IMG/VR virus record: IMGVR_UViG_3300034069_000634
Span: 1 to 64,000 of that record
Length of the DNA: 64,000 nucleotides
Strand: one strand, 5' to 3'
Origin: a virus
The notes under the pieces are model-generated. The model saw only the letters and a program-made list of their open reading frames with translations. It was not told where the DNA came from and ran no database searches. Positions 42,433 to 49,243 of the stretch are shown here, in pieces. Each line of letters begins with the position of its first letter. Within the stretch, counting starts at the first letter, position 1. A program made the translations under genes and the position numbers.

Positions 42433-43077
42433 ATGAAGTTTCCGGTCGACACAATTCCGATGCCGGGTGGATGCATCGCGCAAGAGAAGTTTTACACGAA
42501 ATGGAAAATCAAAACCGGAGAGCCATTAATAAAAGGTCGACCAAAAATAATGTATGAAGGCGAGCAATGGCTCTCCTATAGGCTTAGTTATCACCTCAAC
42601 ATCGCCTGCATCGATCCATATCCGGACCTGAAGTCGGATCAACTCGTCCTTCACAGTTGCGATAACGGATGGTGTATCGCGCCAGATCATCTTCGGCTCG
42701 GGACTCAGACCGAGAACATGATCGATAAATCGGCGCGCAACGAGAACTACCGGGCGACGCGAGGGAAATTCTCAGAAGATGCTTTGCAGCGGATTCGTGA
42801 GGCGAACACCCGACGGAAAGGCGAGAAGCGAAAAGAAGGCTTCTGGCAAACTGAAGAGGGGCGGGCGAAAGCGGGAGAGGCTTCAAAAGCGAGATGGAGC
42901 GATAAAGAAAAAAGAGCTGCAACTATACAAGCAATGAAAGAGCGAGCGGCTTCAGAGCCAGCAAGAAAGAAAATACTCGCCGCACAAAAAGCAAGATGGG
43001 ATAAAGAAGGGTCTAGAGAAAGAGCCTCGTTAAAACTAAAGAAATACTGGGAAGAGAAGCGAGGTAATCTGTCGTGA
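42433..43077 (+). CDS. HNH homing endonuclease (AT-rich)
   Basis: HSCDNGWCIAPDHLRLGTQTENM core. The tail is Lys/Glu-rich and repetitive. Confidence 0.75.
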   Translation: MKFPVDTIPMPGGCIAQEKFYTKWKIKTGEPLIKGRPKIMYEGEQWLSYRLSYHLNIACIDPYPDLKSDQLVLHSCDNGWCIAPDHLRLGTQTENMIDKSARNENYRATRGKFSEDALQRIREANTRRKGEKRKEGFWQTEEGRAKAGEASKARWSDKEKRAATIQAMKERAASEPARKKILAAQKARWDKEGSRERASLKLKKYWEEKRGNLS

Positions 43078-45968
43078 TTCGTGTGAGGTCTGGTTTTAGT
43101 TTTAGGGAAGCCGCGGGCTCGATCGACGACGTCCTCTCTCGGCTCGTCGAGATCGGCGCAAAAGAAGCCCCGATCACGGATCGTGCCAGCACCTTCGGGT
43201 TCTACCGGTGGGACAAAGCCGCGAAAAAGCTCGGACTCCGGCCCGTCTTCGGCGTCGAGCTGGCGGTCACGCCGTCGCTCAACGAGAAGAAGCCGGCGTT
43301 CGACCACACGACCTTCATCGCCAAAGACTCGGTCGCACCGCTGAACCGTCTCGTCGAGACCGCGACGACGCAGTTTCGGTATCGGCCGCTGCTCACCGTC
43401 GAGCAGGCGTTGACCGCCGACGGCGTGTTCAAGATCCTCGGGCATCGCGCCGCGATCGACCGGTACGCGGGCGTGGCCGATACGTTCCTGGCTCTCGGCC
43501 CGTCGACCTCGATGGGTTTGGCGCGGCGCGCGATCGAGCTTGGGATCCCGTTCATCGCCAGTTCCGATAACCGCTATCCGCGTGAATCCGACCGGGGCTT
43601 CTATGAGGTCCTGACCGGCCGGAACGCCGAGACGCAGACGTATCCGCAACACATCCTCTCGGATCTGGAATGGCTCGGCTCGGTCGACCGGCTAAAGCTC
43701 CCGGTCGAGACCCTGTCAGATGCGCTCCGGAACGCCGAGAACGTCCGCGCCGGGTCGACGGCTATCCTGACTCAGGCGAAGCTCCTCGCGCCTCCACGGC
43801 CCGCTACGCTCTACGATATGTGTGTCGAAGGAGCCGAGGCCCTCGGGATCGATCTTCTCGATCAGACCTACGCTGCACGCCTGGACCGGGAACTCTCGCT
43901 GATCGAGGCGAAGGCGTTCGAGGACTATTTCTACATCGTCGCGGACCTGTGCCAGTACGCCCGCTCGGAGATGATCGTCGGGCCGGCGCGTGGGTCGTCG
44001 TGCGGTTCGCTCGTGTGTTATCTCTTGCGGATTACGACTATCGACCCTATTCCTTACGGTCTAATCTTTGAGAGGTTTATCGACGTCAATAGATCCGACC
44101 TCCCAGATATAGACGTAGACTTCAGCGACCAGCAACGCTACAAGATCTTCGATTACCTGAAGGCGAAGTACGGCACGGAGCGCGTCGCCCGTCTCGGGAC
44201 GGTCGCGATGTTCAAGCCGCGCTCGGCCTTGCAGGAATGCGGCGCCGCGCTCCGCGTGCCGCGGTTCAAGACCGATGCGGTCGGCGAGTCGCTCGTCTCG
44301 CGGCCGGACGGCGACGCCCGCGCCCTGAAGATCTTGGAGGACACGTTCGACGGCATCCCGGCCGGCAAGGCACTGATCGAGACCCATCCAGAGATGCGCG
44401 TCGCGACCCGGTTCGAGGGACATCCCAGGCACGCCGGACAGCACGCCGCAGGCGTGGTGATCGCCGAGCGGCCGGTGATCGAGATCGTCGCGATCGACCG
44501 CCGGACCGGGGCGACAATGTGCGACAAGCGCGACGCGGAGGACGGTTACGGGCTCCTGAAGATCGATGCGCTCGGCCTGACGCAGTTGTCGGTGTTTGAG
44601 CGGGCGCTGGAACTGATGGGGATCGGGCGCGAACAGGCGCTCGGGTTCCTCGACGCGCTGCCGCTCGACGACCCGGCCGCGTACCAGATCCTCAACGACG
44701 AGAAATGGTCGGGGATCTTTCAGTTCAACGGCGCCGCGCTCCAGGGGATCACCAAGCAATTCGAGGCGTCCCGGTTCGAGGACGTCGTGACGATCACGGC
44801 GCTCGGTCGTCCGGGGCCGATGATGTCGGGCGGAACGCAGGCCTGGATCGACCGGCGCAACGGCACGAGCCCTGTCACGTACCCGCACCCGATGTTCGAG
44901 CCGCTCTTGGCGGAGACGCTCGGCGTGCTCGTGTATCAGGAACAGGTGATGGCGATCGGCCGTGAGGTCGGCGGCCTGTCCTGGGCGGATGTGACAGCGC
45001 TCCGGAAGCTCATGGCGAAGACCATGGGCCAGGAGGCGCTCGGAAAGTACGCCGAGCCGTGGAAGGCGGGCGCGATCGAGAACGGCCTCGACCCTCTGGT
45101 CGCCGACAAGGTCTGGAACGACCTCGTGACCTTCGGCCAGTACGGTTTCAACAAGTCGCACTCAGTGGCTTACGGACTCGTCTCGTACTGGTGCTTGTGG
45201 CTTAAGGCGCACCACCCGTTCGAGTTCGCCGCGGCTACCCTGTCGTTCGAGCCGGACCCGGACAAGCAGATCAAGATGCTTCGCGAGATGCGCGACGAGG
45301 GCATCGAGTACGTGCCCGTGGACGCTGAGACCTCGACCGAACTCTGGGAGGTCGGATCGAAGGATGGGAGACGCGTGCTCGTCGGGCCGTTGTCGGGCGT
45401 GAAGGGGATCGGGCCGAAGATGATCGGCGACATCCTCGGGCGCCGCGCGCGCAGGGAGCGTCTGACCGACCGACAGGCGAAACTCCTCTCGGATCCGAAG
45501 ACGGCGATCGATTCGCTCTGGCCGATTCGTGACGCGTTTGCCCGGATCATGCCGGATCCGGCCGCGCGCAACATCCACACGGCCCCGACGCAGATCGGCA
45601 CGATCACGATCGAGGACAAGGACCGGACGGTCCTCGTGTTCTGCGTGCTCGCGAAGATCACCGTCTCGAACGAGAACGCACCGGACAAGGTCGAGCGGCG
45701 CGAGGGGCGGGTCTACGACGGACCGATCACGGCGCTCAATCTTCACCTTGCCGACGACACCGGAACGATCTTCGCCAAGATCAGCCGGTACGATTACGAG
45801 GAACTCGGCCAGCCGGTGATCAACCGCGGTCGGGTCGGGAAGGCGCTCTACGCCGTCAAGGGCGTGATCTGGGGCGCGGACGACTTCAAGATGATCAGCG
45901 TCAAGGCGATCCGATACATCGGCGACGTCGGTGATGACGTCGAGTTTTTGGTTCAGGGAGGAGAATAA
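43074..45968 (+). CDS. dnaE: DNA polymerase III alpha-like (DnaE-type) replicase
   Basis: 964 aa with motifs GPARGSSCGSLVCYLLRIT, PDIDVDF, HAAGVVI and FNKSHSVAY. The N-terminal PHP histidines are not evident. Confidence 0.8.
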   Translation: MIRVRSGFSFREAAGSIDDVLSRLVEIGAKEAPITDRASTFGFYRWDKAAKKLGLRPVFGVELAVTPSLNEKKPAFDHTTFIAKDSVAPLNRLVETATTQFRYRPLLTVEQALTADGVFKILGHRAAIDRYAGVADTFLALGPSTSMGLARRAIELGIPFIASSDNRYPRESDRGFYEVLTGRNAETQTYPQHILSDLEWLGSVDRLKLPVETLSDALRNAENVRAGSTAILTQAKLLAPPRPATLYDMCVEGAEALGIDLLDQTYAARLDRELSLIEAKAFEDYFYIVADLCQYARSEMIVGPARGSSCGSLVCYLLRITTIDPIPYGLIFERFIDVNRSDLPDIDVDFSDQQRYKIFDYLKAKYGTERVARLGTVAMFKPRSALQECGAALRVPRFKTDAVGESLVSRPDGDARALKILEDTFDGIPAGKALIETHPEMRVATRFEGHPRHAGQHAAGVVIAERPVIEIVAIDRRTGATMCDKRDAEDGYGLLKIDALGLTQLSVFERALELMGIGREQALGFLDALPLDDPAAYQILNDEKWSGIFQFNGAALQGITKQFEASRFEDVVTITALGRPGPMMSGGTQAWIDRRNGTSPVTYPHPMFEPLLAETLGVLVYQEQVMAIGREVGGLSWADVTALRKLMAKTMGQEALGKYAEPWKAGAIENGLDPLVADKVWNDLVTFGQYGFNKSHSVAYGLVSYWCLWLKAHHPFEFAAATLSFEPDPDKQIKMLREMRDEGIEYVPVDAETSTELWEVGSKDGRRVLVGPLSGVKGIGPKMIGDILGRRARRERLTDRQAKLLSDPKTAIDSLWPIRDAFARIMPDPAARNIHTAPTQIGTITIEDKDRTVLVFCVLAKITVSNENAPDKVERREGRVYDGPITALNLHLADDTGTIFAKISRYDYEELGQPVINRGRVGKALYAVKGVIWGADDFKMISVKAIRYIGDVGDDVEFLVQGGE

Positions 45969-46159
45969 TGACCGATTCTTCAGAAGGGCGCAAAGCTGAG
46001 TGTTCCTACCGGATCACTTGGCGTGGAGATTCTTACGTCCTCCAGGCTCGGTCCCGTAGCGCCGCTCGCTACGCGTCATGGCTGGCCTTTAAGGAGGCCG
46101 GCTACCGGGCTGATCTGCCAACCTTCGCTCGCATGATTGAGATCAAAGCCGAGCGCTGA
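45968..46159 (+). CDS. hypothetical protein
   Basis: 63-aa ORF. Confidence 0.4.
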   Translation: MTDSSEGRKAECSYRITWRGDSYVLQARSRSAARYASWLAFKEAGYRADLPTFARMIEIKAER

Positions 46160-46228
46160 GACCTAGACCCCGGTTCGGGTTCGCTTTAGAACGTCAAAAC
46201 CGCGAAAGTTTCCGGTTAAGGATTTCCA

Positions 46229-47020
46229 ATGCCAGGAGCGGCTTATTACAATGAAATCGATCCCTACGCCGCGGCTTGGCTGCGAAACCTCATCGCCGCC
46301 GGACATATCGCCCCCGGCGAGGTCGACGAGCGCGATATCCGAGATGTCTCGCCCGACGATCTGCGAGGCTTCGTCCAGTGCCATTTCTTCGCAGGAATCG
46401 GCGTCTGGAGCTATGCCCTCCGGCTCGCCGGGTGGGACGACGAACGGCCGGTGTGGACCGGTTCCTGTCCGTGTCAGCCTTTCAGCGCGGGAGGCTCAAA
46501 AAAGGGATTCGTTGACGAGCGGCACCTCTGGCCGGCTTGGTTCCATCTCATCGGAGAGCAAGCGCCTGGGTTTGTCTTTGGAGAGCAGGTTGCGAGCAAG
46601 GACGGCCTCGGTTGGCTCGACCTTGTTTACGCTGACATGGAAGGTGCGGGTTACACCATCGGGGCTGCCGATCTGTGCGCTGCGGGCGTCGGTGCTCCGC
46701 ATATCAGACAACGACTCTGGTTCGTGGCCCACGCCGACACGCAGCGATACCAGAGGATACAGCGAGAGCGCAGTTTTAGATTGGGTGAGGAAAGAAAGAA
46801 AGAATACACACAATTTAGATTTAAATCTTGCAGCCAAATTGGCAATTATTCCGGTTGGGTTTCCTGCCATGATGGGAAAATCCGGCCAATTGAACCCGGC
46901 ACATTCCCGCTGGCTCATGGGATTGCCAACCGCGTGGGACGACTGCGCGCCTACGGCAACGCGATCAATGCGGAAGTCGCCGCGACCTTCATAGCCGCCG
47001 CCCTCGACGTCCTCCCGTAA
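46229..47020 (+). CDS. DNA (cytosine-5) methyltransferase; a second overlapping frame is also open (46251..46994)
   Basis: Motifs [26 protein letters not shown] and AYGNAI are in this frame. The +1 frame shows SWPTPTRSD and [13 protein letters not shown]. Confidence 0.7.
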
Positions 47021-47032
47021 TCGGAAATCACC

Positions 47033-49243
47033 ATGAAAAAGTTGAAGATTCTGACCGACGTTCCGTCCCTGCGCGACTACTTCTCGCGCATCGGCGCGGA
47101 GCCGAGGAGCCTGCGGACGGCGGTCGTGAAGGAGGTGTCGGGGAAATACTGGCGCGATCTCGCGGTGATCCGCGTCGACGAGAAGGGCGCGATCAGCGCG
47201 CCGCTTGAGTACGCGCCGACGGAAGCCGAGGCGGCTGCGATCATCGAGGGGTGTATCGAGTACGACTGGCCGAAGATCAAGCCGCTCGCCGCGCTGGGAT
47301 CGGTCCCGCCGATGGTGGCCGACGCGGATCCGAAGAACGTGTTCGAGTTCCGCAACGACGCGAACGAGATCGTGATGCTCCAGGTGCGGATGGAGCGCGA
47401 CAACGAGCGCGCTTATGTGCCGTGGACATATTGGGATGACGATGAGTGGCGCTCGGCCGAGCCGGACGGGCCGCTGCCGCTGTTCAACGCGCATCTCCTG
47501 AAGGGCGCCTCGACGGTGTTCATCCACGAAGGCGCGAAGGCGGCGCGGTTCGTTCAGACCATGGTCGAGGGCAAGACCCGCGAGGACCGGGATCGGCTGA
47601 AGGCGCACCCGTGGGGCCTGGAGATGACCGGCGCGGTTCATGTCGGATGGATCGGGGGCGCGATGAGCCCCGGCCGGACGGATTGGACGGTGATCAAGAA
47701 GGCCGGGATCGCGCGGGCGTTCATCGTCGCCGACAACGACGAGCCGGGGAAGTCGGCGGTCCCGAAGATCGCCCAGGCGCTCCGGTGTCCGACCTTCGCG
47801 ATCCAGTTCACCGACGAGTTCCCGGCGAGCTTCGATCTCGCCGACCGGTTCCCGGAGAAGATGACGAAGGGGCCATACTATACCGGGCCGGCGTTCCGGG
47901 AGTGTCAGCACCCCGCGACCTGGGCGACGGACCAGATCCCGAATCCGGAGGGCAAGGGACGGCCGCTCACGGTCCTGCGGGAATCGTTCCGGTCGATGTG
48001 GGCCTACGTCGAGGAAAGCGATCTGTTCGTCTGCCGGGAGATGCCGGAGATCCTCCGGCCGGAGCCGATCCTGAACAAGATGCTGGCCTCGTTCTCACAC
48101 GTCAACGAGACCTCGAAACTGATCGTGAAGGCGTATCAGGGGCGCTCGACCCGGCTGTGCTACCGGCCGGATCACGAGGGGCTTCAGGTCACGTTCCGGG
48201 GTTCGTCGGCGATCAACCTCCACGTCCCGGGGCCGATCAAGCCGGCGACCGGGGATCCGAAGCCGTTTCTGGATTTTCTGAGCTACCTGTTTCCGAACGA
48301 GCGTGAGCGGTACGAGGTCGAGCGGTGGTGCGCGACCCTGATCGCGCGGCCCGATATCCGGATGTCGTACGGGCTCCTGCTGATCTCCGAGAAGCAAGGG
48401 GTCGGCAAGACGACCCTCGGGGCCGGGATCCTGGCGCCGTTGGTCGGGGTCTCGAATGTCGGGTATCCCGGCGAGAACGACGTGACGGCCGCGTTCAACG
48501 ATTGGGTTGCGCACAAGCGATTGGCGATCGTCAACGAGATCTATTCCGGCTCGTCGTGGAAGGCGTACCACGCCCTGAAGTCCGTGATCACCGACAAGGA
48601 GGTCATGGTCAACCAAAAATACACACGTCAGTACGTCATCGACAATTGGTGCCACGTTCTCGCGTGCAGTAACTCCATGCGGGCGCTCAAGATGGAGAAC
48701 GACGATCGCCGTTGGTTCTATCCCGAAGTCACGGAATTGCCCTGGGGTAGGGATAAGTTCAATTTGTTTCGTGAATGGATAGATGCTGGCGGCCTTTCTA
48801 TAGTTAAAAGATGGGCGTTAGACTTTGGAGATTACGTGGAACCGGCGGAACGTGCGCCGATGACTGACCGGAAGAAGGAGATGATTGAGGGATCACGTTC
48901 CGAGGCTCAGGCAGAAGCTGCCGCGGTCGCCGAAGCACTTCGCGACATGAAGAATCCGGCGGCCGTTGCTTTGAAAGACGTTGTCGCTTTCGTGCGGTCC
49001 CATGCCCAGGGACGGGTGTTCGACAGCGATTACGAGTTGCGCAAGGCGATGGTCGATTGCGGCGTCGTGCCCCTGAAGAAGCGGATCAAGATCGGTGGCC
49101 GGTTGCAGTACGCGATCGCCAATGAGGCCCTGGCCGATGCGCTGCGGAACATGGGCAACGATCCCGAGGCCGATGGGCCGAAGGCCGCGCTCATCCGGGA
49201 GCGGATCGTGAAGTGCTCGGACCTGATCCATGGGGAGATGTGA
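47033..49243 (+). CDS. primase-helicase (Toprim + SF3/D5-like)
   Basis: Toprim-like IHEGAKAA..VADNDEPG and Walker A SEKQGVGKTT. Confidence 0.75.
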   Translation: MKKLKILTDVPSLRDYFSRIGAEPRSLRTAVVKEVSGKYWRDLAVIRVDEKGAISAPLEYAPTEAEAAAIIEGCIEYDWPKIKPLAALGSVPPMVADADPKNVFEFRNDANEIVMLQVRMERDNERAYVPWTYWDDDEWRSAEPDGPLPLFNAHLLKGASTVFIHEGAKAARFVQTMVEGKTREDRDRLKAHPWGLEMTGAVHVGWIGGAMSPGRTDWTVIKKAGIARAFIVADNDEPGKSAVPKIAQALRCPTFAIQFTDEFPASFDLADRFPEKMTKGPYYTGPAFRECQHPATWATDQIPNPEGKGRPLTVLRESFRSMWAYVEESDLFVCREMPEILRPEPILNKMLASFSHVNETSKLIVKAYQGRSTRLCYRPDHEGLQVTFRGSSAINLHVPGPIKPATGDPKPFLDFLSYLFPNERERYEVERWCATLIARPDIRMSYGLLLISEKQGVGKTTLGAGILAPLVGVSNVGYPGENDVTAAFNDWVAHKRLAIVNEIYSGSSWKAYHALKSVITDKEVMVNQKYTRQYVIDNWCHVLACSNSMRALKMENDDRRWFYPEVTELPWGRDKFNLFREWIDAGGLSIVKRWALDFGDYVEPAERAPMTDRKKEMIEGSRSEAQAEAAAVAEALRDMKNPAAVALKDVVAFVRSHAQGRVFDSDYELRKAMVDCGVVPLKKRIKIGGRLQYAIANEALADALRNMGNDPEADGPKAALIRERIVKCSDLIHGEM

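Follow-up and report, generated by a model that had tools for sequence, protein, structure and literature searches.

Two overlapping reading frames in a phage C5-methyltransferase gene and a candidate nested recognition subunit

Can a single stretch of phage DNA encode two parts of one enzyme in two reading frames at the same time? The question is raised by a cytosine-C5 methyltransferase gene in the virus record IMGVR_UViG_3300034069_000634 of the IMG/VR database, of which positions 1 to 64,000 were analysed (64,000 nucleotides, hereafter called the window). An earlier reading of the letters alone, here called the sequence-only reading, had noted that this gene is open in two overlapping frames that both carry methyltransferase motifs, and had listed programmed frameshifting, genuine dual coding and a recent disruption by indels as possible explanations. 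Translation of the window returned both frames at the expected positions with every string that had been quoted: frame A is an open reading frame (ORF) of 263 amino acids (46229..47020, plus strand), and frame B is an ORF of 247 amino acids (46251..46994, plus strand) in the +1 frame relative to frame A. It likewise returned the double content of nucleotides 46889-46928, which code for 13 residues in frame A and for another 13 in frame B. Both frames match PHROG families annotated as “DNA methyltransferase”, and frame A also matches the Pfam family PF00145. We refer to the product of frame A as alpha and to that of frame B as beta; counted from a start codon that is conserved in the family, the beta ORF (46344..46994) lies wholly within the alpha ORF on the same strand. 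The analysis presented here indicates that the locus is a case of conserved dual coding, neither of frameshifting nor of a broken gene nor of chance. In our judgement it is probably a same-strand overlapping gene pair for one two-subunit C5 methylase, in which frame B encodes the subunit for target recognition and motif IX.

To learn whether both frames are maintained, we collected 80 genomic loci with relatives of frame A (50-69% G+C content, GC) and counted stop codons in 62 of them under a null model in which synonymous codons were shuffled within each gene and stops were counted in the other frames. Frame B contains 23 stops in these 62 relatives, compared with 216.8 expected, while the third frame (+2) contains 731 compared with 651 expected. 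The 23 residual stops are found near the 3' end and are probably the terminators of beta itself. Among 74 relatives, almost all confine their frame-B stops to the part before nucleotide ~103, counted here and below from the conserved YYNE codon, and to the few dozen nucleotides ahead of the alpha stop; the third frame has 7-28 stops per locus. The converse shuffle, of frame-B synonymous codons in the recognition region, predicts 106 stops in frame A, none of which is observed, and 189 in the third frame, where 202 are observed. In the window alone, 1.56 frame-B stops are expected over the whole gene and the probability of finding none is 0.125, which is only weakly above chance. The AT-richer patch within the gene (46739-46870), where the sequence-only reading had considered chance openness less likely, is open in both frames with P ~0.0008 by shuffling and has four stops in the third frame.

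Synonymous variation was measured as the third-position entropy at four-fold degenerate sites of alpha with a conserved amino acid. It is high ahead of beta and along its first ~45 codons, drops in the segments where beta is conserved, and rises again near the end of the gene (Table 1). The entropy by codon position changes accordingly along the gene, with a pure frame-A signature at 46344-46500, a mixed constraint at 46580-46700, where the values for the frame-A positions A2/A3/A1 in the doubly coding core are about 0.55/0.75/0.8, and a frame-B signature in beta motif IX (B1 0.44, B2 0.45, B3 0.77). In the AT-rich patch, frame A had been described as filler and frame B as protein-like, and a comparison with three relatives agrees with this: the differences at the three beta codon positions number 17/13/28 and 15/14/24, with most of the variation at the third position of frame B. 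The synonymous sites of homologues had been proposed beforehand as the arbiter between the frames, and they reveal purifying selection on both frames across the family.

Frame B is thus very probably a protein-coding gene under selection. The opposing view is that frame B is a by-product, a chance-open frame of a GC-rich conserved gene in which any similarity among relatives mirrors that of frame A. It would fit the insignificant openness of the whole frame in the window, the pure frame-A signature of the first ~45 beta codons and the inconsistency with which gene callers choose one frame or the other. However, the roughly ten-fold depletion of stops is confined to the +1 frame and is also seen at 50-55% GC and in a relative with 43% GC, and the four-fold sites hardly vary in precisely those segments in which beta is conserved. 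Together with the frame-B signature in the recognition region and motif IX, the conserved start signals described below and the double openness of the AT-rich patch, this makes a by-product extremely unlikely.

In protein databases, alpha and beta appear as two families. Alpha has >8,000 homologues among PF00145 proteins, with 60-80% identity over residues 1-170, from Enterobacterales, Burkholderiales, Rhizobiales and other groups. For beta, there are 4,891 homologous database proteins (best E-value 1.9e-58, coverage up to 100%), none of which has a Pfam domain, and an exhaustive HMMER search with the beta profile yields 21,466, 12,428 and 8,249 cluster representatives at E <= 1e-3, 1e-10 and 1e-30, respectively. 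In three contigs that encode beta matches, the gene call covers frame B alone, although a complete frame-A ORF is present in every one of them; what look like two “families” are therefore the two frames of one set of genes. The motif content is cleanly divided between the frames: motif IX (LNP..WLMG) is present in 108 of the 120 top beta hits and in none of the 120 top alpha hits, while motif X is present in 118 of these alpha hits and in none of the beta hits. One protein, P0028, was considered as a chimera of alpha and beta and rejected, its apparent “PCQ” being part of WPTPCQ.

Loci with the two-frame layout come from Enterobacterales, Pseudomonas, Burkholderiales, Rhizobiales and other taxa. 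With beta as the tblastn query, 209 phage records were matched, among them phages of Escherichia (70), Klebsiella (35), Salmonella (23) and Burkholderia (19), and most of the matches fall under a frame-A coding sequence (CDS) annotated as cytosine methyltransferase. Alpha is continuous to motif X in 76 of the 80 loci and disrupted in L020, L056, L061 and L070. It is truncated in the last three, and in L020 (Xenorhabdus sp. Sc-CR9) the alpha ORF enters the beta C-terminus (PLAHGITNRWDDCAPTEMPSLRQSRKRS), a natural frameshift variant that loses motif X. These few truly disrupted relatives, and the labelling of Escherichia coli relatives as two partial pseudogene fragments by the Prokaryotic Genome Annotation Pipeline (PGAP), are what a recently disrupted pseudogene would predict, in which compensating indels have shifted the middle of a single-chain gene. 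Such an origin, one of the options in the sequence-only reading, is scarcely credible for a layout that has both frames intact in 76 of 80 loci from many genera and in the 209 phage records, with purifying selection on each frame.

The alpha protein has the properties of a catalytic large domain. It matches PF00145 (E 8.8e-13, residues 77-190), phrog_363 over its full length (E 2.5e-77) and, below the family cut-off, TIGR00675 (E 2.9e-10 in an NCBIfam scan). Motifs I, IV, VI and VIII are located in one chain with the large-domain fold, and a C-terminal motif X with the GN.V/I helix is present; the target recognition domain (TRD) and motif IX, expected between motifs VIII and X of the same chain, are missing. 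Throughout the family, the N-terminus and the C-terminus are conserved and enclose a middle region of variable length, up to ~250 amino acids, that is junk-like and rich in R, C and W. Motifs VI-VIII, including FGEQV, are encoded in the doubly coding core. An AlphaFold2 (AF2) model of alpha with an overall predicted local distance difference test score (pLDDT) of 72.7 is confident at residues 1-170 and at the motif X helix, residues 248-261 (block-mean pLDDT 94 and 81). Over the core, the block means are mostly 75-93 with a single dip to 55, and within residues 187-243 the score is below 50 (187-209 and 222-243) except for a short stretch at 210-221. These low-scoring parts include the highly conserved frame-A stretch opposite beta motif IX, which suggests that its conservation is due to frame B. 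A Foldseek search with the model matches M.HhaI (E 3e-7 over ~173 columns); M.HhaI and other C5 methylases are matched over the large domain only.

The N-terminal motif order of alpha looks permuted in comparison with canonical C5 methyltransferases (residues 6-58, 46244-46402). A motif II-like string is placed at the extreme N-terminus, and the FxGxG motif (FAGIG) occurs only at residues 54-58, just ahead of motif IV. TIGR00675 pairs alpha residue 6 with profile position 25, and hhalign pairs YYNEIDP in alpha with WHCEVDP, which follows motif I in single-chain enzymes.

Alpha and beta proteins look like mirror images of each other: members of the beta family begin with a segment rich in S, T and P, continue with a real-looking middle that holds one to five WPTP..D repeats, and finish with a conserved C-terminal end. 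The beta protein of the window matches phrog_1008 (E 2.2e-19, including residues 38-180 of the whole ORF) and phrog_31772 (E 1.3e-12), and its recognition module has homologues at 52-59% identity (E ~1e-12). Five beta C-termini were scanned against PHROG at E <= 10 and matched only these two beta-type families, with canonical methylase families absent; the clusters of ten beta proteins are named only “methyltransferase” or “hypothetical protein”. In the AF2 model of beta (overall pLDDT 60.6), residues 1-66 are disordered, a helix plus beta-hairpin at residues 70-125 is confident (82-91), and the motif IX helix is of moderate confidence. Frame B had been described as noise in its first two thirds. 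This holds for the first ~45 beta codons (46344 to ~46470), which look unconstrained, and fails beyond them, where the phrog_1008 match extends and where the module encoded by 46551-46718 is predicted to be folded.

A start codon and, in about half of the relatives, a putative ribosome-binding site for beta are written into the alpha codons of the family. The ATG at nucleotide 100 is present in 51 of the 62 relatives, and there or 12 nucleotides downstream in 56 of them, always directly after the last upstream frame-B stop. The Asp codon from which it is built is GAT in 51 of 62 (82%), compared with 36% elsewhere in the same genes. Eight nucleotides ahead of the ATG, a Shine-Dalgarno sequence reads AGGAG in 23 and GGAG in 31 of the 62 relatives. 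The Arg codon at this site is the rare AGG in 25 of 62 (40%), compared with 8% elsewhere, and Arg-Ser is written AGG AGY. Most of the top matches to the beta profile in HMMER start at the same profile positions, and among independently called beta proteins 53 of the 69 in which the landmark motif could be located start at the conserved ATG, 18 nucleotides upstream or 12 nucleotides downstream of it. The window itself has CGCGA at the Shine-Dalgarno position and an AGGAG ahead of the upstream ATG 46251, and its beta may therefore start either at 46251 (247 amino acids) or at 46344 (216 amino acids). The upstream signal is not conserved, as most relatives carry frame-B stops between that place and the conserved ATG. 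Dual coding is thus the option from the sequence-only reading that is favoured by the stop depletion in both frames, the suppressed synonymous variation and the conserved internal ATG with its Shine-Dalgarno sequence.

Table 1. Coordinates of features at the methylase locus, in positions of the window.
Feature	Coordinates	Strand	Remarks
Alpha gene (frame A)	46229..47020	+	C5-methyltransferase large domain with motifs I-VIII, followed by a filler linker and motif X; 263 aa
Beta gene (frame B, +1)	46344..46994	+	216 aa, ~23 kDa from the family-conserved ATG; ORF open upstream to ATG 46251
Alpha motif I (FAGIG)	46388..46402	+	Invariant columns F53, F54, A55, G56 and G58 in the alpha alignment
Alpha motif IV (SCPCQPFS), with the catalytic cysteine	46463..46486	+	Invariant in the alpha alignment
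Alpha motif X	46952..46993	+	Aligned to LRIIGNGVVPQQA of single-chain methylases
Conserved beta start codon	46344..46346	+	Built from alpha codons Asp39-Val40 (GAT GTC)
Family Shine-Dalgarno position for beta	46331..46335	+	AGGAG from alpha Arg-Ser codons; window reads CGCGA
Alternative beta start region	46234..46253	+	AGGAG at 46234-46238, 12 nucleotides before frame-B ATG 46251, in alpha codons 2-4
First constrained beta segment	46478..46520	+	LSAREAQK.. (family consensus NLSARQAK.LGLLTSGT); just downstream of alpha motif IV
Doubly coding core	46551..46718	+	Alpha motifs VI-VIII and the beta helix plus beta-hairpin module on the same nucleotides
Beta recognition region	46725..46883	+	WPTP and one TRD module; includes the AT-richer patch; filler in frame A
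Beta motif IX	46890..46937	+	Frame-B entropy signature; aligned by hhalign to single-chain motif IX
Four-fold entropy, before the beta start	46244-46343		Mean 1.71 bits
Four-fold entropy, first ~45 beta codons	46346-46469		Remains high (1.5-1.9 bits at most sites)
Four-fold entropy, beta ..LSARQAK..	46478-46520		0.66-0.99 bits (sites 46478, 46490, 46493, 46505, 46520)
Four-fold entropy	46551-46718		Mean 0.77 bits, median 0.49; several sites invariant
Four-fold entropy	46870-46994		Mean 0.74 bits; nearly zero from 46889 to 46946
Four-fold entropy	from 46955 onwards		Relaxes to 1.3-1.8 bits
DnaE-type polymerase	43074..45968		Upstream of the methylase gene
DUF5906 primase/helicase-like gene	47033..49243		Downstream of the methylase gene

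The two frames could also be joined in a single product. Under programmed ribosomal frameshifting, the ribosome would leave frame A for frame B after motif VIII and return to frame A after motif IX, and the order A, B, A reproduces the canonical motif order of actinophage methylases that are encoded in one frame; this would also account for the filler look of the alpha middle region. A search of 46700-46740 and 46930-46960, the places in which the sequence-only reading had advised looking for slippery sites, identified neither a suitable X_XXY_YYZ heptamer nor a +1 shift site. The sole heptamer in frame A, the -1 slippery sequence A_AAA_AAG at 46498-46504, leads into the third frame with a stop after five codons, and it is probably incidental since the relatives mostly have AAGKG (consensus) at this position. 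Frame B is kept open, with its conserved ATG and Shine-Dalgarno sequence, from ~380 nucleotides upstream of the supposed A-to-B junction, and no stop interrupts frame A anywhere in the recognition region, although a shift would not need this. The decisive observation is that the beta module and alpha motifs VI-VIII are encoded by the same nucleotides, 46551-46718, so that one chain cannot hold both. We therefore consider frameshifting to be very unlikely.

What beta may contribute to the enzyme is suggested by methylases that are made as single chains. The strings in frame B had been named as typical of phage and prophage cytosine methylases, and this holds: the WPTP-type repeats and LNP..WLMG.P..W are genuine methylase features, and 576 actinophage records encode the equivalent of motifs IX-X, L.P.F.EWMMG.P.GW...GNGVVPQQA, inside annotated methyltransferase genes. 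In gp69 of Mycobacterium phage Moonbeam (YP_009960135), the catalytic motifs, LLPTP..D repeats and motifs IX and X are all placed in one frame. The single-chain actinophage methylases resemble alpha and beta in having motifs IV-VIII, xPTP..D repeats, motif IX (L.P.F.EWMMG.P.GW) and motif X (GNGVVPQQA), and differ from them in that the TRD repeats and motifs IX and X share the frame of the catalytic domain. An hhalign comparison of the beta alignment with 20 of these enzymes gives Prob 90.9% and E 1.1e-6, with the beta WPTP placed on the xPTP repeats and beta motif IX on the single-chain motif IX. Against the lone Moonbeam gp69 sequence the match falls in the right place and is weak (Prob 12.6%), and it is convincing only with the 20-sequence profile. 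The alpha alignment matches motifs IV-VIII of the single-chain enzymes (E 2e-17), with alpha motif IV on their PCQ, and weakly their motif X (E 0.02 for GNGVVPQQA). These alignments identify alpha as the counterpart of the large domain and beta as that of the small domain, which comprises the TRD and motif IX.

Under the two-subunit reading, ribosomes would initiate independently at two starts on one mRNA, and the two polypeptides would then assemble into the active enzyme. Alpha would be the catalytic large domain, with motifs I-VIII, an unconserved linker in which only stop codons are avoided, and the motif X helix. Beta would consist of an unconstrained leader of ~45 residues, a folded helix-hairpin module, one or more WPTP-type repeats and motif IX; these parts would together form the small, DNA-recognising domain. 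M.EcoHK31I, and C5 methylases that were split artificially, are documented cases of an active enzyme assembled from two chains. Here, alpha and beta would form a heterodimer in which beta would set the sequence specificity.

Several observations weigh against this reading. We infer the translation of beta, in the window and in the relatives examined, from the sequence, and the window lacks the internal Shine-Dalgarno sequence that is found in about half of the family. The 80 loci were those most closely related to the alpha in the window and so do not form an unbiased sample. The assignment of beta motif IX comes from one profile-profile alignment (E 1e-6) together with the motif pattern. Pfam gave zero matches to beta and its C-terminus, NCBIfam gave none to beta and two homologues, a sequence-profile search of the Protein Data Bank (PDB) with the beta alignment gave 0 hits at E <= 10, and Foldseek of the low-confidence AF2 model of beta (pLDDT 60.6) against the PDB gave matches at chance level only. 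In a Pfam scan, a hand-made A-B-A chimera of the frames did not extend the PF00145 match. Finally, alpha contains a loosely motif IX-like string of its own, and alpha alone might therefore be active.

Beta could be real and functionally separate from the methylase, for example a regulator or an anti-defence factor overprinted on the gene. Such a function would be compatible with the well-supported dual coding and with the lack of a direct structural or sequence match between beta and known small domains, and also with the mycobacteriophage genes, in which alpha already has a TRD and motifs IX and X, yet a nested +1 ORF persists. Nevertheless, in alignments with single-chain methylases the repeats and the C-terminus of beta fall on the TRD and motif IX, alpha offers no other candidate for a TRD, its middle being unconserved and predicted to be disordered, and motifs IX and X are strictly partitioned between the frames. 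With the precedent of M.EcoHK31I in addition, we regard a separate function as unlikely and prefer beta as a subunit of the methylase.

The nested arrangement is not confined to the relatives of the window. The methylase genes of actinophages also carry a conserved +1 nested ORF, which is shorter, lies over motifs VI-VIII and reads SETLPTSGMTRNGRLLPLP....SSSLPTP.., with or without further xPTP repeats. The pattern ..SETLPTSGM..G.L..LP....SSSLPTP.. was observed in actinophage and IMG/VR loci (L086:821-1195, L088:581-1504, L111:308-1363 and L108:551-1012). In gp84 of Arthrobacter phage MidnightRain, L111 and L108, all xPTP repeats are located in the nested ORF, while motifs IX and X remain in alpha. 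L108 is a contig with 43% GC, and its +2 frame has no ORF longer than 27 amino acids. The actinophage nested ORFs align to the proteobacterial beta alignment with Prob 88.6% and E 2.7e-6 in hhalign, which hints that nesting of the small domain may be older and broader than the proteobacterial family. The Moonbeam nested ORF (L086:821-1195) ends in a motif IX-like RLPREFNDWAELPMSWQP, though the main frame has a motif IX of its own, and this ORF might represent a second small domain or a second specificity.

The methylase gene is located in a phage-like replication module. The GC content by codon position is 0.64/0.44/0.85 in the neighbouring genes and 0.65/0.49/0.64 in the methylase gene (frame A), and the usual peak at third positions (GC3) is seen in neither methylase frame (0.64 in frame A, compared with 0.85 in the neighbours). 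An antisense ORF of 471 codons on the minus strand (46496-47911) lies across the methylase and the gene that follows; Pfam gives no match to it, and it most likely represents a shadow ORF of the GC-rich sequence. When 43074..49243 was compared with a phage collection by megablast, all matches fell within the methylase gene: Xanthomonas phages match 46465-46745 at ~77%, and Pseudomonas phage PMG1 matches 46864-46998 at 83%. The surrounding phage DNA is close to nothing in the collection. The confinement of the matches to these two segments is consistent with an extra constraint from dual coding.

Annotation pipelines usually miss or mislabel this layout, and beta has no Pfam or NCBIfam family. 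In Burkholderia phage phiBtTUL1a (L081:1558-2466), only the beta frame is annotated, as “DNA repair protein”, and the RefSeq record of Xanthomonas phage FoX4 (L089:1105-1830) also has only the beta frame, as “DNA methyltransferase”. Both overlapping CDSs are annotated as “DNA methyltransferase” in Xanthomonas phage PhiXhv-18 (L125:674-1666 and 756-1661). A blastn search of E. coli found matches in 66 of 5,426 genomes. In strain ECCTRSRTH03 (NZ_CP041110; L124:759-1961), an intact alpha ORF of 400 codons is given by PGAP as two partial pseudogenes (792-1392 and 1500-1961), while the beta ORF of 334 codons (886-1890), which has four clear WPTP-type repeats, is unannotated. Other E. coli copies that list two methyltransferase features have apparently been split by PGAP in the same manner.

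Long same-strand overlaps with selection shown on both frames are rare outside small viruses, and the overlap measures 650 nucleotides in the window and up to ~1,200 nucleotides in relatives. It also has a functional logic, in that it would join the catalytic and the recognition parts of one enzyme. We are evenly divided on whether a still larger claim holds, namely that there is a large and ancient superfamily of phage and prophage C5 methyltransferases in which all or part of the small domain is encoded in a nested +1 ORF, in Proteobacteria and, in variant form, in actinophages and a 43% GC lineage. In this superfamily, a core of ~55 codons would code for folded, conserved segments of both proteins, and the overlaps (650-1,200 nucleotides) would be among the longest and most widespread cases of same-strand dual coding in prokaryotic viruses, essentially undescribed apart from M.EcoHK31I and systematically mis-annotated. 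If the two-subunit reading is true, two-subunit C5 methylases are a common phage solution and not a curiosity of M.AquI and M.EcoHK31I, and predictions of specificity for orphan phage methylases must use frame B rather than frame A. In such a superfamily, the nested layout might also allow recognition modules to be exchanged without touching the catalytic chain. The core, with two folded segments on the same nucleotides, offers a natural system for the study of dual-coding constraints. Our literature search found no description of this alpha/beta family or of nested methylase genes in phages; the locus is best seen as a variant of the nearly forgotten M.EcoHK31I kind, with a scope across a whole family that appears to be undescribed.

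Among known systems, the Rz/Rz1 pair of phage lambda provides a gene that is wholly embedded in the +1 frame of another, with products that are subunits of one complex, for lysis. The embedded Rz1-type gene is much shorter (~60 codons) and is not known to have a stretch in which both frames code for folded, conserved segments. M.HhaI and M.HaeIII (PF00145) have the catalytic large-domain fold and motifs of alpha, but they are single chains with the small domain between motifs VIII and X, where alpha has an insert of filler.

Only two natural C5 methylases made of two polypeptides are named in the literature consulted, M.AquI and M.EcoHK31I (PMC3404938). In M.AquI, which is specific for CYCGRG, alpha contains motifs I-VIII and beta motifs IX-X (PMC3404938). 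As at the present locus, the split lies within the variable/TRD region; in contrast, it is sequential, beta is not nested, and motif X is placed in beta.

M.EcoHK31I is a C5 methyltransferase from E. coli HK31 with the specificity YGGCCR (Lee, Kam & Shaw 1995, as cited in PMC2836561 and PMC3404938), and it is the single published example in which beta is nested within the alpha gene. The whole of its beta is read from that gene in a different frame, and both chains are required (PMC2836561, PMC3404938); alpha contains motifs I-VIII, motif X and the predicted TRD, while beta, whose N-terminal 42 residues are dispensable, contains motif IX (PMC2836561). The expression plasmids are called M38 and C23 (PMC2836561), which we take to refer to subunits of ~38 and 23 kDa, compared with 29 and ~23 kDa here. 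The likeness to the locus in the window is one of architecture, as published for M.EcoHK31I and as read from the genes studied here. It includes the nested beta in another frame, the location of motif IX in beta (here assigned by hhalign) and of motifs I-VIII and X in alpha, and the N-terminus of beta, of which ~42 residues are dispensable in M.EcoHK31I, while here the initial ~45 show no constraint and have a prediction of disorder. The two systems differ in the predicted TRD, which is in alpha of M.EcoHK31I, whereas here the WPTP repeats and an extra folded module are in beta and the middle of alpha is filler. They also differ in the overlap, which here spans nearly the whole gene. M.EcoHK31I is a single enzyme and part of a restriction-modification pair, while the gene in the window is an orphan in a phage replication module and its layout is that of a family with thousands of members.

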